Source: an uncultured Thermoanaerobaculia bacterium
Lineage (GTDB): Bacteria > Acidobacteriota > Thermoanaerobaculia > Multivoradales > CAZRFU01
DNA: 64,000 nucleotides
NCBI GenBank assembly: GCA_964599475.1
Contig: CAZRFU010000016.1
Location: 17,619 to 81,618 of the forward strand
Reading direction: 5' to 3'
The notes under the pieces are model-generated. The model made no database searches. It saw only the letters and a list, made by a program, of their open reading frames with translations, and was not told where the DNA came from. Shown here in pieces: positions 2-16,776 of the stretch. Both the position numbers and the translations under genes were made by a program. Numbering within the stretch: position 1 is the first letter of the stretch; each line of letters opens with the position of its first letter.

Positions 2-1498
2 GCGCGCGAGGTCCTCGAGGAGGGTGTCTCACGGATTGATCGAGCACTCGGCGATCAGCCCGCGGTGGCTGCCGACCTCTACGACGCCCTGGCCGAGATT
101 TACCAGCGCCTTGGCCTGGGAGCTCAGGGCCTCGATCTCGCCCAACGTGCCTTGGCGCTGCGCGAGCGAGAGCTCGCACCCGACCCGGCCAAGATCGGGG
201 AAACGCTGACCCGGATTGCCGCGCTCCAACTCGAGGGCCCGGAGCCGGCGCAGGCCCTTGCAGGTGCACACCGTGCGTGGTCGTTGCTGAGTCGCGAGCT
301 GGGCGAGGACAGTCTCGAGGCAGCACGCGCGGAAAGTGAGCTCGCTGCGGCCCTGATCTGGGCGGACCGCGCCGAGGAGAGCGTGGCCCATCACCAACAC
401 GCCTTCGACGTGCTCAGTGCCCTCCTGGGCCCCGACGATCCTCGCACCGCCGCACAGCTGGTGGCTTTGGCTCGTGCCCTCGAACAAGCGGGCCGGTACG
501 AGGACTCGATCGCTGCATTTCGGCAGGCCCTGCCGGCGCTCGAAGGAGCCCTCGGCGACCTCCACCCGGATGTCTCCTACGCGCGCCGGGATCTCGCCGG
601 GGTGCTCGATCGGGTCGGACGGCCCGCCGAAGCCGAGCCGCTGCTCGAGGCGGCGTTGGCGGCGCAACGCAAGGTGCTCGGGAACGACCACTGGCAAGTC
701 GGCGAAACTCTCTTCTCCTACGGCATTCTGCTCAACACCGCCGGACGTTTGCAGGAGGCGGAAGCTGCCTTCCGCGAGGCGCTGGCGATCGACGGCCCCG
801 CCACCCTCGCCGCCCACTGCCTGCGCTTCCTCGGCACCAACCTGGCCGAGCAGGGGCGCCTCGACGAGGCGGTCGAGAGTCTCGAATCGGCGATAGCCGA
901 GTACCGTCGTGTCGAGGGCCTGGACTCGACCGAGGCCTGGCGTGCGGTCGCCAGCCTCGGCCACGCCCACCTGCGCGGCGGGCGGGTCGAGCTGGCCCTC
1001 GCCACCCTGCGCGAGGCGGTGGCGCGGCTGGAGGAGCTGGCCGGGCCCGAGAGCTACCAGGTACGGATGCCGCTGCGCCAGCTCGGTGAGAGCCTGCGGT
1101 GGGCCGGCGAGCTCGAGCAGGCGGTTGCGGTGTTGCGCCGCACCCGCGCCCTCGAGGTCACCCTCTTCGGCACCGAGGACCATGGCGACATCGCCCTGAC
1201 CGATCTCCAGCTCGCGCGAACGCTGTTCGCCGTCGGGACCAAACCCGCACGCGAGGAGGCAAGCGCCCTGTTCGACGAAGCGATCGAGCTGCTGCGGCGC
1301 CACAAGACTCGCAGTGCCAGTCTCGGCGAGGCCCTGCTGGAGCGCGAGCGGCTCAGGCTCGCGCTGGGTGCCCCGGCGATCCGAGCCAACCTCGCCGAAG
1401 CCGTCGAGCGGCTGATGAGTGCCTACGACGCCGACGACCCCCGCACCCGCGAAGCTCGGGCCCTCCTTTCCGGCTCCGACCCGACCGCCAATCCCTGA
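2..1498 (+). CDS. TPR-repeat protein with its 5' end off-window. Probably the C-terminal sensor half of a Ser/Thr kinase paralogous to those at 6974 and 10109.
   Basis: The frame is open from base 2, with no stop before the listed Met at 65. It has repeated Ala/Leu-rich TPR-like helix pairs in the same style as the C-terminal halves of the two kinases downstream. Stop at 1496-1498. Confidence 0.7.
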   Translation, partial: AREVLEEGVSRIDRALGDQPAVAADLYDALAEIYQRLGLGAQGLDLAQRALALRERELAPDPAKIGETLTRIAALQLEGPEPAQALAGAHRAWSLLSRELGEDSLEAARAESELAAALIWADRAEESVAHHQHAFDVLSALLGPDDPRTAAQLVALARALEQAGRYEDSIAAFRQALPALEGALGDLHPDVSYARRDLAGVLDRVGRPAEAEPLLEAALAAQRKVLGNDHWQVGETLFSYGILLNTAGRLQEAEAAFREALAIDGPATLAAHCLRFLGTNLAEQGRLDEAVESLESAIAEYRRVEGLDSTEAWRAVASLGHAHLRGGRVELALATLREAVARLEELAGPESYQVRMPLRQLGESLRWAGELEQAVAVLRRTRALEVTLFGTEDHGDIALTDLQLARTLFAVGTKPAREEASALFDEAIELLRRHKTRSASLGEALLERERLRLALGAPAIRANLAEAVERLMSAYDADDPRTREARALLSGSDPTANP

Positions 1499-1627: not shown

Positions 1628-3157
1628 ATGGTCTCCGAACGAGCACCACGTCACCTCGCGCGTCACCTCGCGGGCGCATTGACGATTTTCGCCGCCGGCA
1701 GTGTCTCAGCCCAGGAGATCGGCGTCGACGACTTTCGCATCAGCGCCATGGGAGGCAGCGGAGATAGTGCCTACACGGCGATCTACTCGTCGGTTGCCCA
1801 CAACCCCCTCGCCGAGGAGTACCTGGTGGTGTGGCTCGGCGACACCAACACCGGCGACGGCGACAACCACTACCAGATCTTCGGGCAGCGTATCGACGTC
1901 GCGACCGGTGCCGAGCTCGGAACCGACGACTTCGTGATCGCAAGCCTCGGCGGCCCCTTCGGATCGGCGCCGTTCGCCTGGGTGACGGTGGCTCACGGCT
2001 CCGGCCAGAACGAGTACCTGGTCGTGTGGTCGACGATCACCGGGCTCGGCAACGGCAGCGACTACGAGATCTTCTGTCGTCGCGTCGCCGCCGACGGCAC
2101 ACCCCTCGGCGTCGCGCTCCAGATCAGCCACATGCACAACCCGACCCAGCCGCAGAACGAGAGCCAGTACACCGCCACCGAGCCCGCCGTCGCCTACAAC
2201 CCGCTCGCGGACGAGTTCCTGGTGGTGTGGGCGGGCGACCATGGTGTCGGCGGACTGGTCGACGAGGAAGTCGAGATCTTCGGGCAGCGCATCAGTGCCA
2301 CGACCGGCCTCGAGATCGGCACCGACGACGTGCGCATCAGCGACGTCGGAGGCACCGGCAGTACCTTCTCGGATGCCCGCTCGCCCGACGTCACCTACAA
2401 CTCGATCGACGACGAGTACCTGGTGGTGTGGGCCGCCGACGATCCCGATGCGGGCACGGCCGACAACGAGCTCGAGATCTACGGGCAGCGCCTGACCTCG
2501 CTCGGCGGCGAGATCGGCGTCAACGACTTCCGCGTCACCACCCATGGCCCCGCCAACGAGCCGGGCTACTCCGCGCTCGAGCCCGCGGTCGCCTTCAGCC
2601 CGGATCACTCCGAGTACCTGGTGGTGTTCAGCGCACCCGAAGCCTGGTCGCAGGCGGTCGGACCCGGCTTCGAGATCTACGCCCAGCGTCTCGACGCGAG
2701 CGCAAGCGCACTCGGCGGCGCCTTCAGGCTGAGCGATGTCGGCGGCCTGGCGGAGCTCGCTTTCGACGCCGACACCCCCGATGTCGCCTATGCCCCGGCT
2801 TCGGAGCGCTGGATCGTCGTCTTCCGAGCCGACGACAACGTCGGCGGGCAAGTCGACGGCGAGCGCGAGGTCCACCTGCAGGAGGTCGATGCGGCAACCG
2901 GCGCCGAGGTCGGCGACAACGACGCCCGCGTCAGCGACATGGGCCCCACCGGCAGCACGATCTACCAGACCTCACTGCCCACCGTCGCTTGCGCCGCTGC
3001 GACCGAGTGCCTGGTGATCTGGCGCGGCGACGACAACGTCGGCGGCCTGGTCAACGACGAATTCGAAATCTTCGGCCAACGCTGGGCAACCACACTGCCG
3101 GCCTCGATCTTCGAGGACGGGTTCGAAAGTGGCGACACCTCGGCGTGGAGCCTGTAG
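1628..3157 (+). CDS. Secreted seven-repeat protein (putative beta-propeller) ending in a DGFESGDTSAWS tail
   Basis: AAGGAG lies 6 nt upstream of ATG 1628. The N-terminus is signal-like (LAGALTIFAAGSVSAQE). Seven repeats of about 60-70 aa each contain E[YF]LVVW ... EI[FY]GQR ... G. The C-terminus is IFEDGFESGDTSAWSL. Confidence 0.8.
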   Translation: MVSERAPRHLARHLAGALTIFAAGSVSAQEIGVDDFRISAMGGSGDSAYTAIYSSVAHNPLAEEYLVVWLGDTNTGDGDNHYQIFGQRIDVATGAELGTDDFVIASLGGPFGSAPFAWVTVAHGSGQNEYLVVWSTITGLGNGSDYEIFCRRVAADGTPLGVALQISHMHNPTQPQNESQYTATEPAVAYNPLADEFLVVWAGDHGVGGLVDEEVEIFGQRISATTGLEIGTDDVRISDVGGTGSTFSDARSPDVTYNSIDDEYLVVWAADDPDAGTADNELEIYGQRLTSLGGEIGVNDFRVTTHGPANEPGYSALEPAVAFSPDHSEYLVVFSAPEAWSQAVGPGFEIYAQRLDASASALGGAFRLSDVGGLAELAFDADTPDVAYAPASERWIVVFRADDNVGGQVDGEREVHLQEVDAATGAEVGDNDARVSDMGPTGSTIYQTSLPTVACAAATECLVIWRGDDNVGGLVNDEFEIFGQRWATTLPASIFEDGFESGDTSAWSL

Positions 3158-3254: not shown

Positions 3255-4789
3255 TCACGGCACGGTGTTCGACCACGCCCAGGTGTTGCCAGTCTCGAAA
3301 CCGTCGGCAAAGAACCACGGGCAGCCGCCCGCGGTGTGCTCGACCGAGCCCATGTCGTTGGTGCCGTTGCCCTGTGGCCGCAACACGCCACGCTGATCCA
3401 TGAAGGTATTGCCGCCCGCGAGAGGGATCCCAGCGTCGATCGCCGGGCTGCTCGGGCTGAGATTGTGGCTGCGGGTGAGCTCCTCGGGGATCCCGACCGG
3501 GCAGGAAAAGCCGAGGGGCAGGATCTGGGCGTCGGTCTCGGGTTTGTTGCCGTTGGTCGCAAGCTCGCCACAGCTGATCCCAGACCACAGGCTCGCGCCG
3601 ATGTCCACTGCGGCGCCGCCTGCGATCGAGCACTGGTCGCCGCTGTCCGTTGCGCTGTTCAGAGCCCAGATCACGTTGCGGGCGTGCAACGTCGAGCCGA
3701 TCGCCCCGGTCGTGACGCCACCGCCAACGGCGGCCTGATTGTTGGCGATCGTGGTCATCCGCAAGGTCAAGGCGCCTTCGTTGTGGATACCACCACCCGA
3801 GCCGGCGCTGGTGTTGCCGGAGACCGTCGTGTTCTCGAGCTGGAGGGTCCCGAGATTGGCGACGGCGCCACCTCTCGCGGCGGGATCGCTCGCGACGTTG
3901 CCCGAGAAGGTGGACTCGCGCTGGAGCGACGATGACCCCGCTGTGATGAAGAAGCCCCCTCCCTCGGCGGCAGCATTGTCGGCGACCGTATCCCGGCTGA
4001 GTGAAACGCCGGAGGCGTTCTGCAGCAACACGGCGCCGCCCTGGCCGGCCGCCACGTTGAGCACGAACGAGCTCAGATCCAGAAAGCCCGAGGCGCTCGT
4101 GGCACGAACCGCACCGCCATCGCCACCGGCGGTGTTGTTGTCGAACGAGGATCCAAACACCGCGAGCTGGGTCGTGTTGGCGACATCGAGCGCGCCGCCA
4201 TGGCCAACTGCGGTGTTGTTGGTAAGGATGGTGCGGCTCAGGTCCACCCGCCCGCCGATGGCGGCGATGGCTCCGCCGTCGCCGTTGGCGTGGTTGCCGG
4301 CAAGAGTGCTCCACAGAGCGTGGACCACGCCACCACTCGCGAGCACGGCGCCGCCACTCCCGGTGGAGGTGTTGTTGGCCAGGATGGCTCGGTCGAGCTC
4401 GAGGTCACCACCGGGCTCCACCACCCCGCTCCACCGCCCGCTGCAACGCCGTCGACGAGGAAGATCTCTCGCATCGTGGCGACCGCCGCAGCGGCGACCA
4501 CGAAGTGCCGCGTCGTGCCGCCACCCGACAGTGTCACCTTGTTGTCCCCATCGAAAACCACGAAGGCCGTGATCGGCTTGGCGGCGGTCAGGGTGATCAC
4601 GATCGGGTCGGGGCCACAGTCGAAGGTGATCGTGCCACCGCCGGCGTGCGCCGTCGCGATCGCGGCATCAAGGTGGGACTCGGTGCATCCTCCAGGCGAG
4701 CCGTCGCCGACGACGGCGTTGGCGCCGAGGACCGGAGGGACGGCGAGCAGCAAGCAGAGGGTGAGGCAAGGGAAGTCGCGAGGTTTCAT
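3255..4789 (-). pseudogene. Beta-helix (choice-of-anchor-Q / Pmp-like) secreted protein split by a 1-nt frameshift
   Basis: ORF 4238-4789 supplies a signal peptide and an N-terminus collinear with the paralogue at 4786-6309 (AVVGDGS..CTE...GGG.ITFDCGP). ORF 3255-4424 supplies GGA[VI]/GGG beta-helix repeats, DQRG..RPQG and the DGFETGNTWAWS tail. The two frames join at the C4 run 4424-4427. One extra G on the coding strand would give ...GGGAGVVEPGGDLEL. Confidence 0.6.
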
Positions 4790-6309
4790 GGCGTAGTCGA
4801 GCTCCAGGAGTTGGTGTTGCCGAGATCAAAGTCGTCGGCGAAGAGGGCGAAACAGTCGCCGGCCTGGTACTCGACCGCCCCAACGTCACAGCCAAGGCCC
4901 TGGGGCCGCGGGACGCCACGCTGGTCGACCTGCGGGGCCAGGGCACAGGAGGCCGCGTCGATCGCCGGGCTCGTTGCCTCGATCGCGTGGGTAGGGGTTC
5001 GTTCGGTTGCCAGTCCAGTGCAGGTCCTCGCCAGGGCGGCGATCCCAGGATTGGTGTTGGGTTGGTTGCCGCTGCTCGTGCCGGTACCGCAGGTCGTGTC
5101 GGACCAGATGCTGAAACTCAGCCCGAGCGGCGCGGCGCCGAAGTTGCACTGCGAGTCGACAAGGCCGTTGTTGGATCGGTTTGCAACCAAGAGGCTGTTG
5201 TGGATCTCGAGCAGGCCGGCAGGCAAGTTGTCGATCCCGGCGCCGGGGTCGCGTGTGACGTTGCCGACGATCGTGCTGTTGACCACCATGGCGGTGCCAC
5301 TGTTGCTGAGGCCACCGCCCCCCAACGCCCAGTTGCCGGAAATGGTCGCGTTCTGCAGGGCCAGCGTACCGAGATTTTCGATACCGCCGCCGATCACCGC
5401 GCTGTTGCGCGACACCGTTGTCGATATCACCACGACCTGCGATGGCGTGTTGACTCCGAGTCCACCGGCGAGACCGGCCGAGTTGTTGGCATCGAGCCAG
5501 GAGTCGGTGATCGTGACGTCGCTGCCATCCCACACGTAGAGCCCACCCGCCTCAGCCGCGTCGTTGCCCCGGATCAGCACGCGGGTGAACTGGGTGAAGA
5601 ACGCGCCGCGCAGGGCGACTCCTCCGCCGGCGCCGCCGGCCGTATTCCCCTCGATCCGGCTGTCGATCACACCGACATTCGAAAACCACGCTTCGACGGC
5701 GCCCCCATCGGTTCCGGCGCCGTTGCCGGTCATCGTGCTCGATTGCACCACGAGGCCGCCGGGATAGAGGTTGATGCCACCTCCTCCTCCGACAGCCTCG
5801 TTGTCGCGGACATGGCTGTCGACGAGGGAAACGAAGAGATGGTTGCCGGCGATCGCACCGCCCCAGGAGGCGGAGATGTTGTCCTCGAGGGTCACCCCCT
5901 CGAGATGCAGTTGCACCGCAAGGTCGAGGGACGGGGCGGGAGCCCAGATCGAACCGCCGGGTGAGGCGCTCCCGAGCGTCAGGGTGAGATTGCGCAGCGT
6001 CACCTCGCTGTCGTCGAGAAGGCGAAAGTGCCGCGTGGCAAGGCCTCCGGAAAGGGCGATCAGATTGCCACCATCGATCGTGACCTGGTCGCCGAGGACC
6101 TTTTCGCTGGTGAGCACGATGGCGTGGGGAGCCGGCCCACAGTCGAAGGTGATCAGGCCGCCTCCGGCGTTGGCGGAGGCCACCGCCGCCGTCAAGGCCG
6201 CCTCGGTACAACTTGCAGACGATCCGTCGCCCACCACGGCGTCGGCGCCGTAGGTCGGCGCGACCAAGGCCACGGCGGCGGGAAGTACGAGCTGATGAAC
6301 CAGGCGCAT
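4786..6309 (-). CDS. Beta-helix (choice-of-anchor-Q / Pmp-like) secreted protein
   Basis: ATG 6309 is preceded by GGAGGA. Signal peptide MRLVHQLVLPAAVALVAPTYGADA. Many GGGI/GGAV turn motifs, then DQRGVPRPQGLGCDVGAVEY and the C-terminal FADDFDLGNTNSWSSTTP. Its TGA overlaps the ATG of the downstream gene (ATGA, 4786-4789). Confidence 0.85.
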   Translation of the reverse strand: MRLVHQLVLPAAVALVAPTYGADAVVGDGSSASCTEAALTAAVASANAGGGLITFDCGPAPHAIVLTSEKVLGDQVTIDGGNLIALSGGLATRHFRLLDDSEVTLRNLTLTLGSASPGGSIWAPAPSLDLAVQLHLEGVTLEDNISASWGGAIAGNHLFVSLVDSHVRDNEAVGGGGGINLYPGGLVVQSSTMTGNGAGTDGGAVEAWFSNVGVIDSRIEGNTAGGAGGGVALRGAFFTQFTRVLIRGNDAAEAGGLYVWDGSDVTITDSWLDANNSAGLAGGLGVNTPSQVVVISTTVSRNSAVIGGGIENLGTLALQNATISGNWALGGGGLSNSGTAMVVNSTIVGNVTRDPGAGIDNLPAGLLEIHNSLLVANRSNNGLVDSQCNFGAAPLGLSFSIWSDTTCGTGTSSGNQPNTNPGIAALARTCTGLATERTPTHAIEATSPAIDAASCALAPQVDQRGVPRPQGLGCDVGAVEYQAGDCFALFADDFDLGNTNSWSSTTP

Positions 6310-6392
6310 TGGGTTTCCTCCTCGAGCTGCTATTGGCTCGAACGGGAAATCGAGGGAGAAAGCGGACATGGCGCCCCTGCTAACATCTCCGC

Positions 6393-6968
6393 GTGTCAGC
6401 TCCCATCCCGGCCGGCGACCTCACCGCCCTGATCGAGGCTTGGGATGGCGGCGCGGGGGTGCCGGTCGACGAGCTGTGGCAGGCTGCCTATGCCGAGCTC
6501 AAAGCGCTTGCACGCTCGCGACTGCGGCGCCAGGGACCCGTGACACTGCTCGACACCACCGCTCTGGTCAACGAGAGCTACCTGCGGCTGGTGGGCGTCG
6601 GCCGCCTCCAGGTCGAGACTCGCGGCAAGTTCTTCGCCTACGCCTCGCGCGTGATGCGGTCGGTAGTCGTCGACCTCGCGCGCGAACGACTCACGACACG
6701 GCGTGGTGGCGGTGCCGAGGCGGTCACCTTCGACACGGACGCCGTCGACCGCCTGCAGTTCCCGGCGCTGGCCGAGCCGCTCGATGTCGATGCGGTGCTC
6801 GCGGAGCTGGAGGTGGTCGACCCGCGACTCGCGAAGGTCGTCGAGATGCGCTATTTCGCGGGCTACACCGAGGTCGAGATCGCGACGATCCTCGGCCTCA
6901 CCGAACGCACGGTACGCCGCGACTGGCACAAGGCGAAGCTGCTGCTGCGCACGATGATCGTTCGCTGA
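6393..6968 (+). CDS. ECF-type sigma-70 family factor (kinase-associated ECF43-like / TIGR02999-like)
   Basis: GTG start. N-terminal DLTALIEAW..G, TTALVNESYLRL (region 2), and a region 4 helix-turn-helix YFAGYTEVEIATILGLTERTVRRDWHKAKLLL. It ends 5 nt before the kinase ATG. Confidence 0.9.
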   Translation: MSAPIPAGDLTALIEAWDGGAGVPVDELWQAAYAELKALARSRLRRQGPVTLLDTTALVNESYLRLVGVGRLQVETRGKFFAYASRVMRSVVVDLARERLTTRRGGGAEAVTFDTDAVDRLQFPALAEPLDVDAVLAELEVVDPRLAKVVEMRYFAGYTEVEIATILGLTERTVRRDWHKAKLLLRTMIVR

Positions 6969-6973
6969 GGCCC

Positions 6974-9334
6974 ATGAACCGCCTACCATGCTCACCCGGC
7001 CAATGGCCCGAGCTCTCGCGGCTACTCGACGAGGCGCTCGAAAGTCATCAGCAGGATCGAGGAATATGGCTCGAGCGCGTCGGCCGAGAGCGGCCGGACC
7101 TCATCGAGGCCCTGCGAACGGTGCTCGAGGCCGAGGTAGGCGAGCAGGCCGATGCCGCCCAATTCGAGTCCCCGTCCTGGGATCTCCTCGATGACGAGGA
7201 TGCTCTTGGCCAGGGAACCGTCGTCGGGCCCTACACGCTCGAAGCCGAGTTGGGAGTGGGCGGGATGGGGACCGTCTGGAGCGCCCACCGCAGCGACGGC
7301 GCGTACCAACGCCGGGTTGCACTCAAGCTGCCCCACCTCTGCGGGCCGGGGGCGGATCTCCGGGCTCGGTTTCGGCGCGAGCGGGACATCCTCGCCCGGC
7401 TGTCGCATCCCAACATCGCGCAGTTTCTCGACGCCGGCGTTGCTGCCGACGGGCGCCCGTATCTTGCACTCGAGTTGGTCGAGGGGCGGTCGATTCTCGA
7501 GGCTGCTGGGTGCGCTCGGCTCAGCGTCGACGGGCGCTTGCGGTGGTTCCGGGCGGTGCTCGACGCCGTCGCCTACGCCCATGCCAGGCTCGTGGTCCAC
7601 CGCGACATCAAGCCCTCCAACGTCCTGGTCGGCGCCGCCGGCTCCGTCAAGCTGCTCGACTTCGGGATCGCCAAGCTGCTCGAGCCGACCGCCTCCGAGC
7701 GCGGCGGCGCCGCGCAGCTCACCCGCGCGGACGTCAGACCAGCGACTCCCGACTACGCCGCTCCCGAGCAGCTCGACGGCGGTGATGTGACCGTGGCGAC
7801 CGACGTGTGGGCGCTCGGTGCGCTGCTGTTCGAGTTGCTGACCGGTGGCCGACCTTTCTCCCGCGCCGAGCGTCTGAGTAGCCAACGCGACCGCTTCGTA
7901 CCGTTCTCCTCGCGCCGCGTCGACCCGACGCACGCTCGGGCGTGCGGCTTGTCGACGAAATCCCTCGCCAGGCGACTCGAAGGCGATCTCGACGCGATCC
8001 TCGCCAAAGCTCTCGCTTTCGAGCCGACCGATCGGTACGCCTCGGTCGAGGCATTCGCCGGCGACCTCGACCGCCACCTTGCTCTCCAGCCGATCGTCGC
8101 GCGGCGGCCGAGCGCATTGGTGCGGGCGCGCCTGTTCGCGCGCCGTCACCGAGTCGGACTGGTGTCGTTCGGCCTCCTCCTCGCGTCGGTGACCGCAGGC
8201 ATGCTCGGGGTACTGCTGCAGGCCCGGGCGACCTCGGCGGCCGCCCGGCGCGCCGAAGCGACCAAGGACTTCCTCGTCGAGGTCTTCAAAGGCAGCGACC
8301 CGCGGGTTGCGCGCACCAAGCCCCGCGGCGAGATCACCGCTCGAGAGCTGCTCGACATCGCGGCTCACGATCTCGAAGTCGGGTTCGAGGATGATCCCGA
8401 GACCCGGATCGAGCTGTTGGGGCTGACCGCCACGATCTACACCTACCTCGACGAGATCGGTGCCGCACGGAGGCTGGCCGAGATGGGACGGCTCGAGGGG
8501 CAGCGCCTGCTCGAGGCCGACGATCCTCGCCTGCTCGACCCTTGGCTTCTCGAGATCTGGCTTGCCCTCGAGGCCGGGGACCTCGAGTCCGCGCGGACAC
8601 GGCTCACCGAGGTCGACCGACACCTTACGGTCTACGGGCTCGATCACACGGTCCACCGCGCCGGTTACCACCTGGCCGCCAGCGACATCGCTGCGGCGCA
8701 GGGCGATCGAGACGGCCGGAAGCAAGAGCTCGAGCAGGCCCGGGCTCTTTATGCTGCGGTGGCTCCACGCGACTCAGGGCATGCCGCAGCGCTGTCGAAT
8801 CTCGGCCTGTTGCGTCTGGGGGGTGGTGAACCCACGGAGGCTCTGACCCTGCTCGACCGCGCCCTGACGGTGGCCCAGACTGCCACCAGCGATGTGGGTA
8901 CCGACCTCGCCCGGATTCACGCTCGTCGAGGCCGGGTGTTGCTGGAGCTCGCGCGCTTCGAGGACGCCCGGGAAGCGCTCGACACGGCTCTGGCGCTGTA
9001 CGCCGCGACGGTCGGCACAGACCATGTGACCACCTGGGCCCCGCGCGCCGCCCGTGCCCGAGCGGCAGCCTACCTCGGCCAAGCCATCGACGCCGACCGC
9101 GACCTCGGTTCTCTCGAAAGCCTCCCGGGCTGGCAGGAACCGCGTTTCTCGCGCTACCGTCAGGAGGCCAACTTGCACCGCGGCCTGGCTTTGGCCAGAC
9201 TCGGTCGGCAGCCACAGGCTGCGGCGATTCTCGCCGAGAGCGTCGCAAGCCTGGGCGACGATCCCGAGCTCGAAGCCGAGATCCGCTGGGCTCGGCTCGA
9301 GATCGCAAGCACCCGGTCCGACGCAGGTGGATGA
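6974..9334 (+). CDS. Ser/Thr protein kinase with one transmembrane segment and a C-terminal TPR array
   Basis: LGVGGMGTVW, VALK, HRDIKPSNVLV, DFGIAKL and APE motifs. TM segment VGLVSFGLLLASVTAGMLGVLLQA. Long TPR-like C-terminus. The listed ORF start at 6368 is an out-of-frame run over the sigma gene. Confidence 0.9.
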   Translation: MNRLPCSPGQWPELSRLLDEALESHQQDRGIWLERVGRERPDLIEALRTVLEAEVGEQADAAQFESPSWDLLDDEDALGQGTVVGPYTLEAELGVGGMGTVWSAHRSDGAYQRRVALKLPHLCGPGADLRARFRRERDILARLSHPNIAQFLDAGVAADGRPYLALELVEGRSILEAAGCARLSVDGRLRWFRAVLDAVAYAHARLVVHRDIKPSNVLVGAAGSVKLLDFGIAKLLEPTASERGGAAQLTRADVRPATPDYAAPEQLDGGDVTVATDVWALGALLFELLTGGRPFSRAERLSSQRDRFVPFSSRRVDPTHARACGLSTKSLARRLEGDLDAILAKALAFEPTDRYASVEAFAGDLDRHLALQPIVARRPSALVRARLFARRHRVGLVSFGLLLASVTAGMLGVLLQARATSAAARRAEATKDFLVEVFKGSDPRVARTKPRGEITARELLDIAAHDLEVGFEDDPETRIELLGLTATIYTYLDEIGAARRLAEMGRLEGQRLLEADDPRLLDPWLLEIWLALEAGDLESARTRLTEVDRHLTVYGLDHTVHRAGYHLAASDIAAAQGDRDGRKQELEQARALYAAVAPRDSGHAAALSNLGLLRLGGGEPTEALTLLDRALTVAQTATSDVGTDLARIHARRGRVLLELARFEDAREALDTALALYAATVGTDHVTTWAPRAARARAAAYLGQAIDADRDLGSLESLPGWQEPRFSRYRQEANLHRGLALARLGRQPQAAAILAESVASLGDDPELEAEIRWARLEIASTRSDAGG

Positions 9335-9451
9335 CCGGAGCCGTCCCTCGACGTTCCCCGGTCCGGCGCCCCGCTGACGGCAGTCACCGAGACGCGTCTG
9401 GGAATGCCGCGCCCTGATACCGACCGCGCGGAGTCCTCTTCGAGCCGGGTG

Positions 9452-10057
9452 TCAGCCTGGGCGTGGTTCGAATCCGGTCAGCTCGAGATGCAACATCGCG
9501 CGAGCGGCCCGCCAGTCGCGCTTGACCGTCCGCAGCGAGACCGCTGTCGCATCGGCGATCTCCCCAAAGGTCAGCCCGCCGAAGAAGTGCCACTCGACCG
9601 TTTGGGCCAAGCGCGGGGCTGCGAGCTCCAGACGAGACAGGGCAGCATCCAGCGCCAAGAGATCTTCGATCGGGGCCGACGTGCCCGGCGCTGCGACGGC
9701 GATGGCGTCGAGGTCGATCTCAGGCTGACCACCACCACGTTTGCCTGCCTGGCGCCCGCGCGCGCGGTCGACCACCACGTGGCGCATCGCGCGCGAAGCC
9801 ACTGCGAACAGGTGTTGACGATCTTCGAATGGTAGCGCCCCTCGGCGCGACAGCCGCAGGAACACTTCGTGCACGAGCGAGGTGGCGGACGGCCCCGCAA
9901 CTTGGGCCCGCAGGTGGCGACCCGCCAAGGCCCGGAGGTCGGCGTAGATCAGATCGAACACCTTGCCTGCAGCATCGCGGTCGCCGCCGCGAGCGGCTGC
10001 CAGGAGCGCGGTCACGGCGCCCTGGTCGCCTTCGGGGGAATCGCCGGCCGCACCCAT
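9452..10057 (-). CDS. ECF-type sigma-70 family factor (second copy, kinase-associated)
   Basis: Only the last 201 aa of ORF 9452-11290 look real: AVTALLAAARGGD, TSLVHEVFLRL and FFGGLTFGEIADATAVSLRTVKRDWRAARAML. ATG at 10057. The RBS is weak, so the start is moderately uncertain. Confidence 0.85.
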   Translation of the reverse strand: MGAAGDSPEGDQGAVTALLAAARGGDRDAAGKVFDLIYADLRALAGRHLRAQVAGPSATSLVHEVFLRLSRRGALPFEDRQHLFAVASRAMRHVVVDRARGRQAGKRGGGQPEIDLDAIAVAAPGTSAPIEDLLALDAALSRLELAAPRLAQTVEWHFFGGLTFGEIADATAVSLRTVKRDWRAARAMLHLELTGFEPRPG

Positions 10058-10108
10058 TCCGAAGATTCTAGCGCCGCGTCCGACATCTCCTGTAGCGTTG
10101 CCGCACCG

Positions 10109-13072
10109 ATGGCCACCTCCCGGCAGGAAGAGCGAGCGCGCTGGTTCGTCGAGCTGTGCGACCTCGAGCTGCGGGAGCGTGACCGGGCTCTCGAGGAGAT
10201 CGCCGCGAGCGATCCCCAGCTGGCGGCCGAGGTCGAAAGGCTGCTCCGCCTCGATCGGCAATCGAACGGGCCGATCGAAGCCCTGCGCGAGGAACTTGGA
10301 CCGGCCCTGCACTCGGCGTTTTCCGAACTGGAGGTGGCAGACCTTGCGCCGCCGGAACGGCTCGGCCCGTGGCGCCTGGGCGAAAGACTCGGTGCGGGCG
10401 GCATGGGCGAGGTCTGGGCCGCCGAACGCGCCGATGCCGGCTTTGCCCAGCGCGCTGCCATCAAGCTGGTCCGCTCGAACATGGCGAGCGAGGAGGTGGT
10501 GCGCCGCTTCGCCATCGAACGCCGGGCTCTCGCACGGCTCGAACATCCCGGCATCGCCCGGCTGCTCGACGGCGGTGTCGCTCCCGATGGTCGCCCGTGG
10601 TTCGCCATGGAGCGGGTCGACGGCATCGCGATCACGACCTTCGCCGACACCAACGCACTCGACCTCGGGTCGCGATTGCGACTCTTCCTCGCCGTCATCG
10701 AGTCCGTCGCCTTTGCTCACCAGGCGCTGGTGGTCCATCGCGACCTCAAGCCCTCGAACATCCTGGTGACCGCGGCCGGCGCGCCCAAAGTCCTGGACTT
10801 CGGCCTGGCCAAGCTGCTCGACCCGGCGGAAGGCAACCAGGACCAGCCGGAGCTCACGCACACCAACCTGCTGGCGCTGACCCCGGCTTACGCCGCTCCA
10901 GAGCAATTCCTCGGCGAGCCGACCACCACCGCAACCGACGTCTACGCCCTGGGCGCGGTTCTGTTCGAGCTCCTCACCGGGCAATTGCCGCACCAGCGGC
11001 GAAGCCCTTCGCTCGCCGTGCTGCTCGAAGGGCTCGAGCGCGAGACCCTCGAGCGCCCTTCTCAGCGCCTCAGGCGTTCGGCTGCCAGCGAACGCCCGGA
11101 TCGAGCCGCCAGGCTGCTCGAGGGAGACATCGACACCATCGTGCTGCAGGCTCTCGCCCGCGAACCGGCCCGCCGCTACCCAACCGTGGCGGCGCTCGGC
11201 GCGGACATCCGCGCCCACCTCGAAGGGCGGCCGATCGCGGCACGGCCGGCCTCGGCCTTCTACCTCTTCTCCAAGTTCCTCGGGCGGCACCGAGCGGCGG
11301 CGATCGCTGCGCTGACCGTGGTGTCGGCCCTGAGCGTCAGCCTGATCGTCTCGTTGCAGCAGACTGCGGTCGCTCGCGCCGCCCTCGCCACGGCACAGAG
11401 CGAGGCCCGGCGCGCCGAGAGGGTCAAGGACTTCCTAGTGTCCGTGTTCGAACAGGCCGACCCAACCCACACCCAAGGAGCCGACGTGCCGGCGCGACAG
11501 ATCCTCGCCGAGGGCGCGGCCCAGCTGAGGACCAACCTCGCCGACGAGCCCGAGGTCCGCGCCGAGCTCTACGACACCGTCGCGCAGATCCAGACCAGCC
11601 TGGGATTGCTCGAAGAGGGGCTGGCCAACGCCGAAGCCGGCGCCGCAGAGCGCAAGCGGCAGTTCGGTGACAGCTCGCGCGAGTACGCCCGCAGCCGGGT
11701 GACGGTGGGCCGGGCCAAGCTGCAGCAGGCCCAGTTCGCTGGCGCGCTGGAGGACTTCGACCATGCCCTATCGGTGTTCGAAGCCAGGGTGGATACCCGC
11801 TCGCTCGACTTCGCGAAGGCACTCTCCGGTCGGGCCGAGGCCCGTCTGATGCTTGGCGACCCGGAGCAGGCGCGCACCGATCAGCTCGCCGCCAATGCGA
11901 TCTATGCCGCGGCCCTCGGGCCTGAGGATCGGGAAACCCTCGGCCAGCTCTCGAATCTCGCCGTGATCGAAACCCGGTCCGGAACCGTCCTCGAGGCCGC
12001 GCGGATCTTCCGCCAGGTGCTGGCCGGCCTCGAACGCGTCGAGCCCCCGGACTCGGCACGTGTGCTCGATGTCGTCCTCAATCTCGCCACCGCCCTCGAC
12101 ACCGCCGGCCAGAGCACAGAGGCCTTGGCGCTGTTCGAACGCGTCGTCGCCGGTCGCCGGAGGATCTACGGGGACCAACACCCCCTGCTTGCCGAAGCGC
12201 TGGTGATCGCCGGGCTCAGGATGTCGCGAGCCGGCCGTGGCGACGACGCACTTCGAGCGCTCGACGAGGCCCGCGCGATCTACGCACCGCTCGATCACCC
12301 GGAGCTCGGTACCGTCGACAACTTCAGCGGCCTGACCTACGCCGACCTGGGGCGGTTCGCCGAAGCCGAGGCGGCGTTCGCGGCAGCGTCGGCTCGGTTC
12401 TCACGGGACCTCGGCCCCGCGCACGTGATGACGGTTTCCGCCAACGCCAATCGGGCCAACGTGGTGAGTGAGCTCGGTCGCGAGGACGAGGCAGTCGAGC
12501 TGTTCGCCGAGGCGGTCGCCCAGCTGCGTGTGCTCCAGCAGCTCGACAACCCGAGGCTGTTGCGCATGCGACTGAACTGGGGAGCGGCGCTGCGCCGCGC
12601 CGGACGCTTTGCCGAAGCGCGGTCGGTGCTGGAAGCCGCGATGGCGGCCGCGCGCGAGCAGTTCGGAGGCGACCATCTGCGCATTGCCGAGGGCTCGGTC
12701 GAGCTCGCCCGCCTCGAGCTGGCTGCGAGAACGTCCACCGCTCCCGAGGTCGCTGCCTCACTGCTCGCCGAGGCGGAGCGGATCGCCGAGAACAACCCGC
12801 CCAACGCCGCCTTGGCCCGCAATCTGGCGGCAGCGAGGGCGGAACTGCGGGAGGCAAACGGTTCCTCGGCACCCATCACGGCCCCGACCACCCTGCCATC
12901 GACCCCGCTCGAACCCGTCCGAGAAGATCAGGCCATTGTCGAGGCTGGGGGACGGGCTCTACCATCTCCTGGCGTGCGGCGCGATCGAGGTGGAGATCAG
13001 CTCCGGCTCGGTGTCCGCGGTAGACGTCTTCGCCGACCGGCTGCGATTCGAGCTGCTGGATCTGCTGCGTGA
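10109..13072 (+). CDS. Ser/Thr protein kinase with one transmembrane segment and a C-terminal TPR array (3' end uncertain)
   Basis: ATG 10109 (MATSRQEERARWF). LGAGGMGEVW, AIKL, HRDLKPSNILV, DFGLAKL and APE motifs. TM segment AAAIAALTVVSALSVSLIVSL, then TPR repeats. The last ~60 aa are low-complexity and overlap an out-of-frame DGFESGDTSAWS tail. Confidence 0.85.
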   Translation: MATSRQEERARWFVELCDLELRERDRALEEIAASDPQLAAEVERLLRLDRQSNGPIEALREELGPALHSAFSELEVADLAPPERLGPWRLGERLGAGGMGEVWAAERADAGFAQRAAIKLVRSNMASEEVVRRFAIERRALARLEHPGIARLLDGGVAPDGRPWFAMERVDGIAITTFADTNALDLGSRLRLFLAVIESVAFAHQALVVHRDLKPSNILVTAAGAPKVLDFGLAKLLDPAEGNQDQPELTHTNLLALTPAYAAPEQFLGEPTTTATDVYALGAVLFELLTGQLPHQRRSPSLAVLLEGLERETLERPSQRLRRSAASERPDRAARLLEGDIDTIVLQALAREPARRYPTVAALGADIRAHLEGRPIAARPASAFYLFSKFLGRHRAAAIAALTVVSALSVSLIVSLQQTAVARAALATAQSEARRAERVKDFLVSVFEQADPTHTQGADVPARQILAEGAAQLRTNLADEPEVRAELYDTVAQIQTSLGLLEEGLANAEAGAAERKRQFGDSSREYARSRVTVGRAKLQQAQFAGALEDFDHALSVFEARVDTRSLDFAKALSGRAEARLMLGDPEQARTDQLAANAIYAAALGPEDRETLGQLSNLAVIETRSGTVLEAARIFRQVLAGLERVEPPDSARVLDVVLNLATALDTAGQSTEALALFERVVAGRRRIYGDQHPLLAEALVIAGLRMSRAGRGDDALRALDEARAIYAPLDHPELGTVDNFSGLTYADLGRFAEAEAAFAAASARFSRDLGPAHVMTVSANANRANVVSELGREDEAVELFAEAVAQLRVLQQLDNPRLLRMRLNWGAALRRAGRFAEARSVLEAAMAAAREQFGGDHLRIAEGSVELARLELAARTSTAPEVAASLLAEAERIAENNPPNAALARNLAAARAELREANGSSAPITAPTTLPSTPLEPVREDQAIVEAGGRALPSPGVRRDRGGDQLRLGVRGRRLRRPAAIRAAGSAA

Positions 13073-13256
13073 CGGCTTCGAAAGTGGCGACACCAGCGCA
13101 TGGTCGCTCGCGGTGCCGTAGCCGCGGCCATCCGGCCTGCGGGCTATCATCTGCTCGCGGTGACCGAGATGCCGAGCGCGGACTCGCCATTCGCAACGGT
13201 CGCGGCGCAGGCCGAGAGCAGAGAAGCCGACGAAGGCCCGGCGGGTTCAGCCGAGT

Positions 13257-13856
13257 TTGGGGTGCGGCTGGAGGATTCTCGTGGAAGAGTGGTGGTATTC
13301 ATGGATCGCACTGCCCGGGCTGATCTTCCTTGCCCGTACCACTGATGTCGGCCTGTCGACCCTGCGTATCCTGTTCATCGGCCAGGGCCGTCGCGGTCTG
13401 GCTGCCGCCACCGGGTTCTTCGAGGCGATCATCTGGCTGACGGTGGTGTCGCAGACCTTCAAGCACCTCGACAACCCGCTGGCGATCATCGCGTACGGCG
13501 GAGGCTTCGCCATGGGCAACGTCGTGGGGATGATGCTCGAAGGCAAGCTTCGACTGGGAGTCCAGGTCGCCCGGATCATCGGCGCCCGGGATCCGACGCT
13601 GTTGCAGGATTCGCTGAGGGCCCTCGACATCGGCTTCACCAGACTCGAGGGTCACGGCGCTCAGGGGCCCGTCTGGGTACTGTTTACGGTCGTGCGTCGG
13701 CGCGACGTGGCACGCCTGCTCGAGGCCGTCGAACGCGTCGCTCCCCAGGCCTTCGTGTCGATCGAGGACGTCCGACGGGTCGACCACGGTGTTTTCCCGC
13801 ACCCACCGATAGCGACCGAATGGCCGGGCTGGCGGCTGCTACGCAAGGCGCGCTGA
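13257..13856 (+). CDS. UPF0316 / DUF2179-domain membrane protein
   Basis: Collinear with the UPF0316 family: ...TLRILFIGQG..., IAYGGGFAMGNVVGMMLEGKLRLG, and a C-terminal DUF2179-like FVSIEDVRRV. The start is TTG 13257 or GTG 13281. Confidence 0.8.
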   Translation: MGCGWRILVEEWWYSWIALPGLIFLARTTDVGLSTLRILFIGQGRRGLAAATGFFEAIIWLTVVSQTFKHLDNPLAIIAYGGGFAMGNVVGMMLEGKLRLGVQVARIIGARDPTLLQDSLRALDIGFTRLEGHGAQGPVWVLFTVVRRRDVARLLEAVERVAPQAFVSIEDVRRVDHGVFPHPPIATEWPGWRLLRKAR

Positions 13857-13901
13857 ACTTCCGTGCTATTATTTGAAGGAGTTTCTCGAAGGAGAGGTCC
13901 C

Positions 13902-14369
13902 ATGTCGAAGATGTTCAGCTGGAGTCTCCTGGTGCTGATCGCGTCCGCCGCGAGCGCCGGCACCTTCACCGTGACCCTGCACAACGGCAACAGCTTCGAG
14001 AGCCGCTACCAGCCCAAGGCTGCCAGCTGGGATGACAACGTCATCCTGGTGCTCGACGAGCTCGGCAACTGGGTTGGGCTCGAGCGCGCCGACGTCAAGT
14101 CGGTGATCTCCGACATCGAGGCTCGCGGCTACGGCATCGTCATCGACACGACGACCAAGGAGTTCGGCTTCGCCCCGAACGACGCCGCGCTCCCCGACGA
14201 AGAAGGTGGCGCACAGCCGCAGCAGGCGCCGTCGGCCCTCGACCGCATCCTCGGGCAGACCTACGACACGCCGCAGTTCGTCGAGCCCGGCTCGAGTGGT
14301 GGCGGGTTCCCGGTCTTCAGCGTCGGAACCAGCGGCAGCGCGGCCACTCAGCCGCAGGGCCCTCGCTGA
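13902..14369 (+). CDS. Secreted hypothetical protein
   Basis: GGAGAGG lies upstream of ATG 13902. Signal peptide MSKMFSWSLLVLIASAASAG. No recognisable domain. Confidence 0.65.
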   Translation: MSKMFSWSLLVLIASAASAGTFTVTLHNGNSFESRYQPKAASWDDNVILVLDELGNWVGLERADVKSVISDIEARGYGIVIDTTTKEFGFAPNDAALPDEEGGAQPQQAPSALDRILGQTYDTPQFVEPGSSGGGFPVFSVGTSGSAATQPQGPR

Positions 14370-14378
14370 TCTCGGGCC

Positions 14379-15131
14379 GTGGCGCGGCTGATCCGTGACG
14401 GCGGCGGCTACGCCGTCCTCGAACGCGGCGCCGCGCTGCGCTTGAAGAGCAATCCCTTCGAGGTTCCGCGGCACGCCTGGGAGCTGGGCTCCCCCTGCGA
14501 GCCCGGCACGGCGCAGGTACCGGTGCACCCACGGACGGTCTTGGGCATCGGTCGCAGCTACCGCGCCCACGCCGAAGAGCTCGGCAACCAGGCTCCCGAG
14601 TCTCCGCTACTCTTCCTCAAGGCACCGAGCTCGCTGCTCGACCCCGGTGCCCCGCTTGCGATCCCCACCAGCTGCGGCCGGATCGACTTCGAGGGTGAGA
14701 TCGCGCTGGTGCTGGCATCGCGGCTGGATCGAGTACCAGCAGACGAGACCCTGTCGAAGGTGCTCGGAGTCACCGCTGCGTGCGACACCACCGCGCGCGA
14801 GATCCAGCAGGGTGACCGCACCTTCGCCCGTGGCAAGTCGCTGGTCTCGAGTTGCCCGATCGGCCCGGTGATCGATCTCGATCCCGACTGGGGAAACCTC
14901 GAGGTCGTCACGCGGATCAACGGCGTCGAGCGTCAGCGTGGACACGAGCGGATGTTGCTGTGGCCGATCGCGGAGATTCTCGCCTACGTGTCGAACTGGA
15001 TCGTGCTCGAAGCCGGGGACGTGATCCTCCTCGGCACCCCTGCAGGCGTTGCGCCCTTGAGCCCCGGCGACCGGTTGGAGGTCGAGGTCAGCGGCGTCGG
15101 GGTGTTGCACAACCCTGTCGTAGCGCGCTGA
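14379..15131 (+). CDS. Fumarylacetoacetate hydrolase (FAH) family protein
   Basis: FLKAPSSL, IDFEGEIALVL, ACDTTAREIQ, ARGKS....PIGP and GDVILLGTPAGV motifs. GTG start. Confidence 0.85.
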   Translation: MARLIRDGGGYAVLERGAALRLKSNPFEVPRHAWELGSPCEPGTAQVPVHPRTVLGIGRSYRAHAEELGNQAPESPLLFLKAPSSLLDPGAPLAIPTSCGRIDFEGEIALVLASRLDRVPADETLSKVLGVTAACDTTAREIQQGDRTFARGKSLVSSCPIGPVIDLDPDWGNLEVVTRINGVERQRGHERMLLWPIAEILAYVSNWIVLEAGDVILLGTPAGVAPLSPGDRLEVEVSGVGVLHNPVVAR

Positions 15132-15592
15132 TGGGGCCTCGGCGTCTCAGGCAGGTCATCGCCCTGATCGTGGCGCTGGCTGCCGCGGTGATCGGCCTCG
15201 AGGGCCGCGGATACCCCTGGTCACTGGCCGCGATCTTGGGTGCTGCCTGCGGAGCGTTCGTCTGGGTCTTGCTCGAGCGGATCGGCGAGATCGCGGCGAT
15301 GTTCGGCGATCACCACCCGCCACGGGAAGACGAGGACCGCCGCCAACAGCGCGAGATGGATCCACCCGCCGAAGACCATTCCGGCGCCGAGGGATACCAA
15401 CCAGGTCGAGAACAAGCCGAAGGTGAGGGCCAGCCGCAAGAGCTCGGGGCGCATGATGCACAGTCTAACCCCGAGGAGCCACTTCGCCGTGCGACGCTGG
15501 ATACTGACACCCCCGAGGTGCTGTTCGACCACCCGCTGATGCGAGCCGAACGGCGTCGGCTGCCGGCACCGGACGAGGAGCAGCACCGCTGA
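15131..15592 (+). CDS. Hypothetical membrane protein with two N-terminal TM helices and an acidic tail
   Basis: Joined by TGATG overlaps to the upstream gene (15129-15133) and to crcB (15590-15594). High GC3 in the TM part. It competes with the antisense ORF 15221-15586. Confidence 0.5.
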   Translation: MGPRRLRQVIALIVALAAAVIGLEGRGYPWSLAAILGAACGAFVWVLLERIGEIAAMFGDHHPPREDEDRRQQREMDPPAEDHSGAEGYQPGREQAEGEGQPQELGAHDAQSNPEEPLRRATLDTDTPEVLFDHPLMRAERRRLPAPDEEQHR

Positions 15593-15987
15593 TGCTACGC
15601 CTCGCCGTCGCCGTCGCCGCCGGCGGGGCCCTCGGCGCCCTGCTGCGCTGGGGTGTCGGTCTGGCGGGCCTCGAGCTCGCGCGTCGGCTCCCGGAGCCGG
15701 CGCGCTGGTGGCCTCTCGGCACCCTGGCAGCCAACGCCCTCGGCTGTTTTGCCATCGGCCTGCTCGTCGGGATCTTCGAACACCGCTGGGCAGCCCCGAG
15801 CGGGTGGCGAGCCTTTCTGGTGGTCGGGCTCCTCGGCGGATTCACCACCTTTTCGAGCTACGCTCTCGAGGCGGTGCAGATGGTCCAAGACGGCCGGGCC
15901 CGCGAAGCCCTCGGCTACGTGCTGGTTTCAACCGTCGGCGGGGTGCTGCTGGTCGCCGCCGGCTGGACCCTCGGCCGAGCGACGTGA
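15592..15987 (+). CDS. crcB: Fluoride ion channel CrcB/FluC
   Basis: 131 aa and four TM helices. GTLAANALGCF and LLGGFTTFSSY signature motifs. Confidence 0.9.
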   Translation: MLRLAVAVAAGGALGALLRWGVGLAGLELARRLPEPARWWPLGTLAANALGCFAIGLLVGIFEHRWAAPSGWRAFLVVGLLGGFTTFSSYALEAVQMVQDGRAREALGYVLVSTVGGVLLVAAGWTLGRAT

Positions 15988-15994
15988 GCAGTTG

Positions 15995-16075: not shown

Positions 16076-16105
16076 GCGCCTGCCAACCGTGTAAGCTCAC
16101 TCGCG

Positions 16106-16582: not shown

Positions 16583-16642
16583 GAGGACTCGGCGGGGCGG
16601 CCCGGTCGGACGTGAATGGCGCCGTCCGAGCCCGAGGACCAA

Positions 16643-16772: not shown

Positions 16773-16776
16773 ATCT

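Follow-up and report, generated by a model that had tools for sequence, protein, structure and literature searches.

How two extracytoplasmic function (ECF) sigma factors, each with a receptor Ser/Thr kinase gene beside it and no anti-sigma gene, would be switched on, and which genes they would then serve, is the question raised by a locus in a 64-kb stretch of Thermoanaerobaculia-like DNA (the window; G+C 62-71%). The locus holds two sigma/kinase pairs, sig1/kin1 and sig2/kin2, together with genes for secreted proteins that end in a common C-terminal motif, termed here the DGFE tail. The reading favored by the evidence, to which we assign a probability of about 0.72, is that of two independent modules of the ECF43 type, of the same kind as EcfK/PknS of Xanthomonas citri, accompanied by the tail of a third kinase; each sigma factor would be switched on by its kinase, and phosphorylated sig1 would drive the neighboring operon for beta-helix proteins. 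An earlier sequence-only reading of this DNA had proposed phosphorylation-controlled circuits of this sort, and its claims are taken up where the results bear on them.

Sigma factors and their kinases

The sequence-only reading had given both sigma factors a TIGR02999-like N-terminus and linked them to the kinase-associated, anti-sigma-free ECF43 type. Profile searches bore out the family assignment: sig1 scored 163.7 bits against TIGR02999 (cut-off 126.15 bits) and 135.5 bits against PF07638, and sig2 scored 166.3 and 142.9 bits, respectively, above the cut-off in every case. The two proteins are 41.6% identical to each other. More than 6000 database proteins matched sig1 at E ≤ 1e-10, the closest named homologues (66-69% identity) coming from metagenome-assembled genomes of Thermoanaerobaculia (Acidobacteriota) and the next group (55-60% identity) from Nevskiales, Steroidobacteraceae and Burkholderiales. 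About 94% of the X. citri EcfK sequence was rebuilt from the peptide tables of PMC13147305, and end-to-end alignment with this reconstruction gave 31% identity for sig2 (E 2e-18) and 33% for sig1 (E 2e-15). From this homology we infer that TIGR02999 corresponds to ECF43.

Three traits distinguish ECF43 in the literature, namely the loss of the DAED motif, a QTTA-like motif with the phosphorylated Thr, and a kinase neighbor that replaces the anti-sigma factor (PMC8999054, PMC13147305); the Thr is conserved in 88% of the members. All three traits were found in sig1 and sig2. Neither protein has DAED, and the corresponding sigma2.2 motif reads D54-T55-T56-A57 in sig1 and S57-A58-T59-S60 in sig2. 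The second Thr of the sig1 motif (T56, in LDTTALVNE) and the single Thr of the sig2 motif (T59, in SATSLVHE) were invariant in an alignment of 15 sequences, at the same spot where other ECF sigma factors have DAED before LVQE. A conserved phospho-acceptor Thr in region 2, which the sequence-only reading had suggested looking for, is thus present at the position of EcfP T63 and EcfK T51 (AGPSATSLVHE in sig2 vs. AGLQATELVHE in EcfK). The acidic D54 that sig1 keeps within the motif is comparable to the retained Glu of the EcfK motif, QATE. At the position of T106, the second residue important for EcfK function, 77% of ECF43 members have one of Ser, Thr, Asp and Glu (PMC13147305); both sig1 and sig2 have Asp there, in agreement with that statistic.

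No anti-sigma gene or domain was detected in or around 6300-13900, either among flanking and overlapping open reading frames (ORFs) or by domain searches, and the gaps around sig1, kin1, sig2 and kin2 (83, 5, 117 and 51 nt) leave no room for such a gene, whose absence had been noted from the sequence. Judged by these comparisons, sig1/kin1 and sig2/kin2 belong to the known ECF43 kind exemplified by EcfK/PknS and EcfP/PknT. The earlier statement that phosphorylation had been established in at least one studied case (EcfP/PknT) is correct for that pair and outdated as a count, since EcfK/PknS is a second case with direct phosphorylation (PMC13147305).

Both kinases carry the complete set of catalytic motifs (GxGGMG, VAxK, HRDxKPSN, DFG and APE) at the expected spacing and match Pkinase with 135.7 (kin1) and 113.7 bits (kin2), the two proteins being 33% identical. 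Each has a single hydrophobic helix of 19-21 aa at about aa 395-416, with the TPR family matches located C-terminal of it; this order of domains around one transmembrane (TM) helix would place the kinase domain in the cytoplasm and the TPR array outside. The best solved-structure match of kin1 was the crystal structure of PknS(1-364) (9eed, E 1.5e-41). The architecture noted from the sequence alone was therefore upheld, except that the helical N-terminal extension, put at about 80 aa, comprises 93 and 94 aa before the P-loop in kin1 and kin2, respectively. The same stretch had a median length of 96 aa in 113 relatives, with the conserved core LFxELxEL...R..L...D..L...V..LL, and a profile built from the extension alone matched PknS residues 2-89 (E 7.8e-5), which indicates a family-wide module rather than a peculiarity of Xanthomonadaceae. 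In an AlphaFold2 model the first 52 residues of kin2 form a three-helix bundle (predicted local distance difference test score, pLDDT, 95-98), consistent with the three to four helices predicted for the PknS extension.

The extension of about 90 aa might be seen as a cryptic anti-sigma-like or docking domain that holds the sigma factor at the membrane until the kinase fires, that is, as a fusion of anti-sigma factor and kinase. Its conservation from Acidobacteriota to Xanthomonas PknS, the confidently modeled bundle, the fact that the PknS extension has no assigned function and the lack of a separate anti-sigma factor at the locus would all suit such a role. Yet a Pfam search of the extension returned no match even at E = 10, a profile search of the PDB matched no anti-sigma factor, the extension resembled anti-sigma domains neither in sequence nor in fold, and in the established model the missing DAED patch already accounts for the inactivity of the sigma factor, all of which makes a fused anti-sigma domain very unlikely.

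The arrangement of the genes within each pair agreed with what had been read from the sequence: sig1 and kin1 are co-directional with 5 nt from stop codon to ATG, and sig2 and kin2 are divergent with exactly 51 nt between their start codons, both of which are backed by orthologues (59 nt apart in L087; loci fetched for comparison carry L numbers). In order to evaluate how general the pairing is, 80 species-representative loci with a sig1-like gene (L007-L086), drawn from several phyla and mostly proteobacterial, were compared. A kinase gene was located directly downstream of the sigma gene and on the same strand in 60 of them, was divergent in two, lay elsewhere within 5 kb in 12 and was absent from six, which brings the loci with a kinase within 5 kb to 74 of 80. 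Orthologues of sig2 (69-74% identity) are likewise divergent from the kinase gene in L087, L088 and L093-L097, sigma and kinase genes stand tail to tail in the sig2 orthologue loci L090 and L092, and more distant relatives of sig2 (45-49%) are co-directional with the kinase. Since the pairing survives rearrangement, the sigma factor and the kinase appear to form a functional couple.

These data also bear on the possibility that kinases and sigma factors are mere neighbors, the kinases acting on other substrates and the sigma factors being controlled by transcription or by an unlinked anti-sigma factor. The six related sigma loci without a kinase within 5 kb would be in keeping with it, as would the EcfK T51A variant, which remains functional in vivo (PMC13147305), and phosphorylation of the window sigma factors is itself deduced from homology. 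This explanation is nevertheless improbable, given that the pairing is kept across phyla and in three gene orientations, that the sigma factors lack the DAED patch and have an invariant Thr, and that in two homologous pairs, EcfK/PknS (PMC13147305) and EcfP/PknT (PMC8999054), the kinase has been demonstrated to phosphorylate the sigma factor directly.

The clustering of the two modules, in contrast to the pairing within them, did not hold up as a conserved feature. In a 92%-identical sig1 locus (L001), kin1 is followed by unrelated DNA and the sig2 module is missing, and sig2 orthologues adjoin a Sel1-repeat gene or another secreted-protein gene where the window has kin1. By this comparison, the two modules have come to lie side by side through a local accident and do not form a conserved unit. 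The Sel1-repeat genes beside the orthologous sig2/kin2 modules were located at 4231-5268 in L087 and at 4777-5892 in L089; in L089, where no sigma gene is present, the Sel1-repeat gene takes its place beside the kinase. Within the 64 kb, tblastn searches with all five proteins detected no sigma or kinase paralogues beyond sig1/kin1 and sig2/kin2. The truncated TPR gene at the start of the window had been taken for the tail of a third kinase, and the alignments confirm it: from its first residue, ORF 2-1498 aligns to aa 462-889 of kin2, the part that follows the membrane helix, and over about 490 aa it is 39-44% identical to residues ~457-950 of Pkinase+TPR proteins of about 950 aa. Its 5' neighborhood lies outside the window.

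A candidate promoter and the predicted targets

The proposal that the circuits regulate the neighboring surface proteins found support for module 1, through synteny and a promoter-like motif, and none for module 2. In all seven sig1-clade loci that could be read (the window, L001, L003, L005, L007, L110 and L111), the gene adjacent to the sigma gene encodes a signal-peptide protein with a DGFE tail. In six of the seven this is a divergent beta-helix gene, and in L111 it encodes a 990-aa protein, upstream and on the same strand. The window representative (4786-6309), matched by PF13229 and NF041518, has a GGAGGA Shine-Dalgarno sequence and a signal peptide at ATG 6309; its homologues adjoin sig1 relatives in L001, L003, L005, L007 and L110. 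It overlaps gene 3255-4789 by an ATGA, the two forming a two-gene operon divergent from sig1. Compared with its intact 511-aa orthologue in L001 (94% identical), the second gene has a 1-nt deletion in the G-run 4424-4427, and its N-terminus, with the signal peptide, lies in another frame; this frameshift is either a sequencing error or the mark of a pseudogene.

Other loci place the same genes in a phosphate context. In L003 the beta-helix, sigma and kinase genes (6334-10900) are located between phoU and pstS; there and in L004 the trio is embedded in a phosphate-regulon region, with phoU and a phosphate-selective porin gene on one side and pstSCAB on the other, and in L110 (2561-5594) a phosphate-selective porin gene adjoins the beta-helix gene. 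The occurrence of the same trio in the pho/pst region of L003 and in L110 indicates that the three genes move as a unit, and a link of the trio to phosphate supply is possible.

Alignment of six divergent intergenic regions showed four invariant blocks, GAACGGA, CCGGACA, TAnnnT and the GTG start codon, separated by unconserved spacers. Taken in the direction of the beta-helix gene, the first two of these blocks read TGTCCGG-N15/16-(T)CCGTTC, 28-29 nt in total. In the window, L001, L003 and L110, a spacing of 28-30 nt separates them from the beta-helix ATG downstream; the spacing to the sigma start ranges from 24 to 48 nt. In the sig2 clade the same element, in the form TGTCGCC-N15/16-CCGTTC, was found downstream of the sigma stop codon in L088, L091, L096 and L098, 36-55 nt before the next signal-peptide gene, with a second copy before the following gene in L088, and in L089 the motif stands 23 nt before a DGFE-tailed beta-helix gene located after the kinase. 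The orientation of the motif is settled by these sig2-clade copies, which read towards the next secreted-protein gene. Over the 80 loci, TGTCCGG-N14-17-CGTT occurred 22 times, in 18 loci, vs. 2.0 expected (~10-fold; 30 Markov shuffles, maximum 5 occurrences). The sites were divergent-upstream of the sigma gene, at its 3' end or just after the kinase, and no copy was found upstream of a sigma gene on its own strand in any locus examined. On the strength of this distribution, TGTC(C/G)GG-N15/16-CCGTTC is read as a candidate target promoter of this ECF43 subfamily.

Taken on the plus strand, the element could instead represent an autoregulated promoter of the sigma gene itself (GAACGG-N17/18-CCGGACA). 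ECF sigma factors usually autoregulate (PMC7826278), GAAC resembles the classic ECF -35 core, and for an element between sig1 and the beta-helix gene either direction is geometrically possible. The spacing speaks against it, being fixed towards the beta-helix ATG and variable towards the sigma start, and so do the sig2-clade and proteobacterial loci, in which the motif lies downstream of the sigma or kinase gene with TGTC...CGTTC pointing to the next gene and never upstream on the sigma strand. We consequently give little credence to a sigma-directed promoter and read the element as directed at the secreted-protein genes. Together with the synteny, it suggests that the sig1 module probably switches on the neighboring secreted beta-helix genes.

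Within the window, the only intergenic copy precedes the beta-helix operon (6340-6368). Exact and 2-mismatch searches found none before 1628, before 10109, before either sigma gene or in 10058-10108, and the sequence-only idea of a -35/-10 motif common to 1628, 6309, 6393 and 10109 was not borne out, the 6309 gene alone having a copy. Two further matches were rejected as being at chance level, one ahead of crcB (15548) and one within the segment that encodes the signal peptide of an 847-aa protein (54414). A published ECF43 promoter consensus was not found in the accessible literature, and Iyer et al. 2020 and Bayer-Santos et al. 2018 may contain one. For sig2, the target in the orthologous loci would be the gene for a secreted protein that directly follows the sigma or kinase gene.

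The third conserved block, a TAnnnT hexamer 6-7 nt before the sigma start, was present in all seven sig1-clade loci. Comparable hexamers precede sig2 (TAGAAT, 10070-10065, minus strand, 7 nt before the ATG) and kin2 (TAGCGT, 10093-10098, plus strand, 10 nt before the ATG); sig2 orthologues show TACAAT 10 nt before the start, and the orthologous sig2/kin2 regions keep GCGCTACAAT before the sigma gene and GGCAGAAT before the kinase gene. These hexamers, 6-10 nt before the sigma and kin2 start codons, come without a Shine-Dalgarno sequence, a pattern which suggests that the sigma and kin2 mRNAs are leaderless and made from housekeeping-type promoters. No intrinsic terminators were found in 6200-10200. 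From the 51-nt divergent region, overlapping promoters or autoregulation had been deduced earlier. The first part stands, because start codons only 51 nt apart imply that the sig2 and kin2 promoters overlap physically; autoregulation finds no support, no copy of the motif being found upstream of a sigma gene on its own strand.

Put together, the preferred reading of two kinase-switched modules would run as follows. The sigma genes would be transcribed from housekeeping-type -10 elements just before their starts, without autoregulation, as the TAnnnT hexamers and the missing motif suggest. By analogy with EcfP and EcfK, the sigma factors would be inactive as made, lacking the acidic DAED patch that is used elsewhere to bind RNA polymerase beta'. 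A signal from the envelope or from outside the cell, received by the TPR domain, would activate the kinase, which would phosphorylate T56 of sig1 or T59 of sig2, as in the homologous systems, and in this way supply the missing negative charge and allow the holoenzyme to form. One phosphorylation may suffice, as the alignment puts an Asp at the T106 site already. Phosphorylated sig1 would then transcribe the beta-helix operon (6309 down to 3255) from 6340-6368, as indicated by synteny and the motif.

Several points weigh against this scheme. Phosphorylation, cue and regulon are all predicted from homology and comparative sequence. The assignment of the motif to -10 and -35 elements and the choice of the sigma factor that reads it are likewise putative, and the motif could in principle be the operator of another regulator. 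A strict two-hexamer scan of 6200-10200 found no full sigma-70 promoter before either sigma gene. One of the two predicted sig1 target genes is frameshifted in the assembly, and a nameable sig2 target is absent from the window. Finally, a switch that depends on a single Thr may be too simple, because sig1 keeps D54 and EcfK T51A is still functional in vivo (PMC13147305).

C-terminal tails and the stretch behind kin2

The three secreted proteins encoded at 1628-3157, 3255-4789 and 4786-6309 had been noted to share a DGFE tail, and this was confirmed, the middle gene being the frameshifted one. The tail, [FL]-x-D-[DG]-F-[ED]-x-G-x4-W-S-x3-P followed by the stop codon, is encoded at 3100-3157, 3255-3320 and 4786-4855, with a fourth fragment at 13071-13121; outside the window it was found in L001, L003, L005, L007, L089, L093, L111 and L112. 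Among ~1 Mb of fetched loci it was restricted to Thermoanaerobaculia-type contigs and always stood near a sigma/kinase module. No Pfam or NCBIfam family matched it, even when the tails alone were searched at E = 10, and nothing usable on the motif or on Thermoanaerobaculia sigma/kinase pairs was found in the accessible literature. Queried with the final 137 residues of the beta-helix protein, a word-indexed search returned no homologues, and an exhaustive one yielded 6583 relatives of its choice-of-anchor-Q-like domain. Nine or ten of the best 150 of these end in the DGFE tail, directly after the domain, and many of the best 150, from other lineages, have at the same point a tail of the form hydrophobic-YLP-[LIV]3-[RK] (YLPLxxR). 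Because other lineages end there in a different tail, the position appears to be a slot for alternative C-terminal tags, and the sequences are suggestive of a lineage-specific sorting or anchoring signal.

Behind its signal peptide, the 1628-3157 protein contains seven repeats, perhaps propeller-like, each about 60 aa long and marked by the motifs EYLVVW and EIFGQR. Pfam and NCBIfam searches gave no match for it, and it bears no relation to the DUF5122 protein, likewise DGFE-tailed, whose gene occupies the equivalent position in L001. Tail-bearing genes adjoin both types of module, in seven of seven sig1-clade loci and, for kin2, in L089, L093 and L112. A bolder interpretation is that the tail is an undescribed sorting or export tag and that the ECF43/TPR-kinase modules are dedicated controllers or sensors of the tailed surface proteins. 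It draws on the presence of tailed genes beside both modules, on the tail slot and on the family-wide promoter motif before these genes, and by this interpretation the TPR array might bind the exposed tails of unsorted cargo, by analogy with DegS, which senses the C-termini of outer-membrane proteins. We consider this combined interpretation unlikely.

The DNA behind kin2 varies between strains. At about 12,930 the coding signal, as seen in the G+C content of third codon positions (GC3), switches to the +1 frame, which ends in a DGFE tail and a stop at 13121; the annotated kin2 ORF reads through this remnant to 13072, with the tail fragment out of frame. In L112, which is 99.3% identical, 1.96 kb (5283-7241) replaces the 211 nt of window 12928-13138, and this insert holds an intact minus-strand gene for a 522-aa DGFE-tailed beta-helix protein. 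With L112, L089 and L093, three loci show the kin2 module physically tied to tail-bearing beta-helix genes. A tail fragment follows kin2 out of frame both in the window and in L112, in different frames. The idea that kin2 itself ends in a DGFE tail, concealed by a sequencing error that shifts the frame in the G5 run 12947-12951, was prompted by the GC3 signal and rejected, as kin2 orthologues (58-63% identity, 904-940 aa) end earlier and the L112 fragment is out of frame. On comparison of the sequences, the stretch is more likely the remnant of a gene. The last ~50 residues of annotated kin2 are probably read-through, since the orthologues stop at about aa 920-930 and the tail in L112 is out of frame. 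The tail DNA behind kin2, GACGG[CG]TTCGAAAGTGGCGACACC, recurs almost unchanged in the 1628-3157 gene, and on account of this near-identity at two places the tails may act as recombination sites.

Gene models, known systems and significance

The features of the locus are collected in the table below. The raw ORF lists were noisy owing to the high G+C content, and one database model required correction: P0121 (1067 aa, GTG 9869), given for kin2, overlaps sig2 by 189 nt on the opposite strand. Both the orthologues and the size of the kinase extension indicate that this model is too long and that the true start is ATG 10109. The genes that follow at 13257-19608 are ordinary ones (DUF5698/DUF2179, a small secreted protein, an FAA hydrolase, crcB, and ATP synthase beta and gamma), and the more distant stretch 51948-57763 includes an HsdR-like gene of the type I restriction kind and the gene for the 847-aa secreted protein.

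Table. Features of the sigma/kinase locus and the evidence for each (positions in the window)
Feature	Positions	Strand	Evidence
Third kinase-TPR gene, 3' part, 498 codons, cut by window edge	2..1498	+	TPR_12/TPR_10 matches; alignment
Secreted 509-aa protein, seven repeats, DGFE tail	1628..3157	+	Signal peptide and tail in translation
Second beta-helix/choice-of-anchor-Q-like secreted protein, DGFE tail, frameshifted	3255..4789	-	94% identity to L001 protein
Beta-helix secreted protein, 507 aa, choice-of-anchor-Q domain, DGFE tail	4786..6309	-	PF13229 and NF041518
Predicted ECF43-type promoter, TGTCCGC-N16-CCGTTC	6340..6368	-	Conserved blocks; 30 nt before beta-helix ATG
TAACAT, -10-like element, 6 nt before sig1 GTG	6381..6386	+	Same spacing in relatives
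sig1, ECF43-type sigma factor, 191 aa, GTG start	6393..6968	+	TIGR02999, PF07638
kin1, PknS-like receptor Ser/Thr kinase, 786 aa	6974..9334	+	Pkinase and TPR matches
sig2, ECF43-type sigma factor, 201 aa	9452..10057	-	TIGR02999, PF07638
sig2/kin2 divergent control region, 51 nt	10058..10108	.	Between sig2 and kin2 start codons
kin2, PknS-like receptor kinase, long TPR array	10109..12927	+	Pkinase and TPR_12; start at ATG 10109
Strain-variable stretch behind kin2, DGFE-tail remnant in +1 frame	12928..13138	+	GC3 frame switch; L112 comparison

The closest characterized relative is EcfK/PknS, the ECF43 system that controls the anti-amoeba type VI secretion system of X. citri (PMC13147305). The window sigma factors resemble EcfK over their whole length (31-33% identity), with the phosphorylated Thr in the same sigma2.2 context and no anti-sigma factor. 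The kinases follow the layout of PknS, in which the kinase domain is preceded by an 83-aa N-terminal extension and followed by a TM helix and a periplasmic TPR domain (PMC13147305), the extension being homologous and helical and the kinase domain of the GxGGMG type, with a single TM helix and TPR. The two systems differ in phylum (Acidobacteriota, Thermoanaerobaculia-like, vs. Gammaproteobacteria) and in their targets, which in the window are predicted to be secreted beta-helix proteins and not a type VI secretion system. In addition, the T106 linker site is Asp in sig1 and sig2, the linker stretch of sig2 is devoid of Ser and Thr, the TPR array is much longer in kin2 than in PknS, and sig2/kin2 are divergent, unlike the co-directional ecfK and pknS genes.

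EcfP/PknT of Vibrio parahaemolyticus, an ECF43 system of the polymyxin response (Iyer et al. 2020, as summarized in PMC8999054), could be compared through its published motif. On that basis sig1 is similar in its motif (DTTA vs. STTA), in the second Thr as acceptor and in the co-encoded Ser/Thr kinase; like EcfP, described in that summary as intrinsically inactive and without DAED, the window sigma factors have no DAED, and by the same motif sig1 differs in keeping an Asp at the first position. With the classic pairs RpoE/RseA and SigW/RsiW the modules have in common sigma2/sigma4 ECF factors, a bipartite -35/-10 target promoter (here a candidate) and envelope or secreted targets beside the sigma gene. 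Unlike them, the window shows no anti-sigma gene, DAED patch or sign of autoregulation, and control would be exerted by a Hanks-type kinase.

ECF43 sigma/kinase pairs are numerous, with thousands of homologues, and only two have been studied. Mechanistically this locus adds little; it supports the view that ECF43 sigma factors are made constitutively and switched on post-translationally, and are not autoregulated. What it adds is a predicted promoter, a conserved beta-helix target for module 1, and negative findings as regards a common motif, autoregulation and conservation of the cluster. The candidate consensus TGTCCGG-N15/16-CGTTC would be usable for predicting regulons across Acidobacteriota and Proteobacteria, and within Thermoanaerobaculia the comparison points to a recurrent link between ECF43 modules and secreted beta-helix proteins that bear an uncharacterized C-terminal tail.

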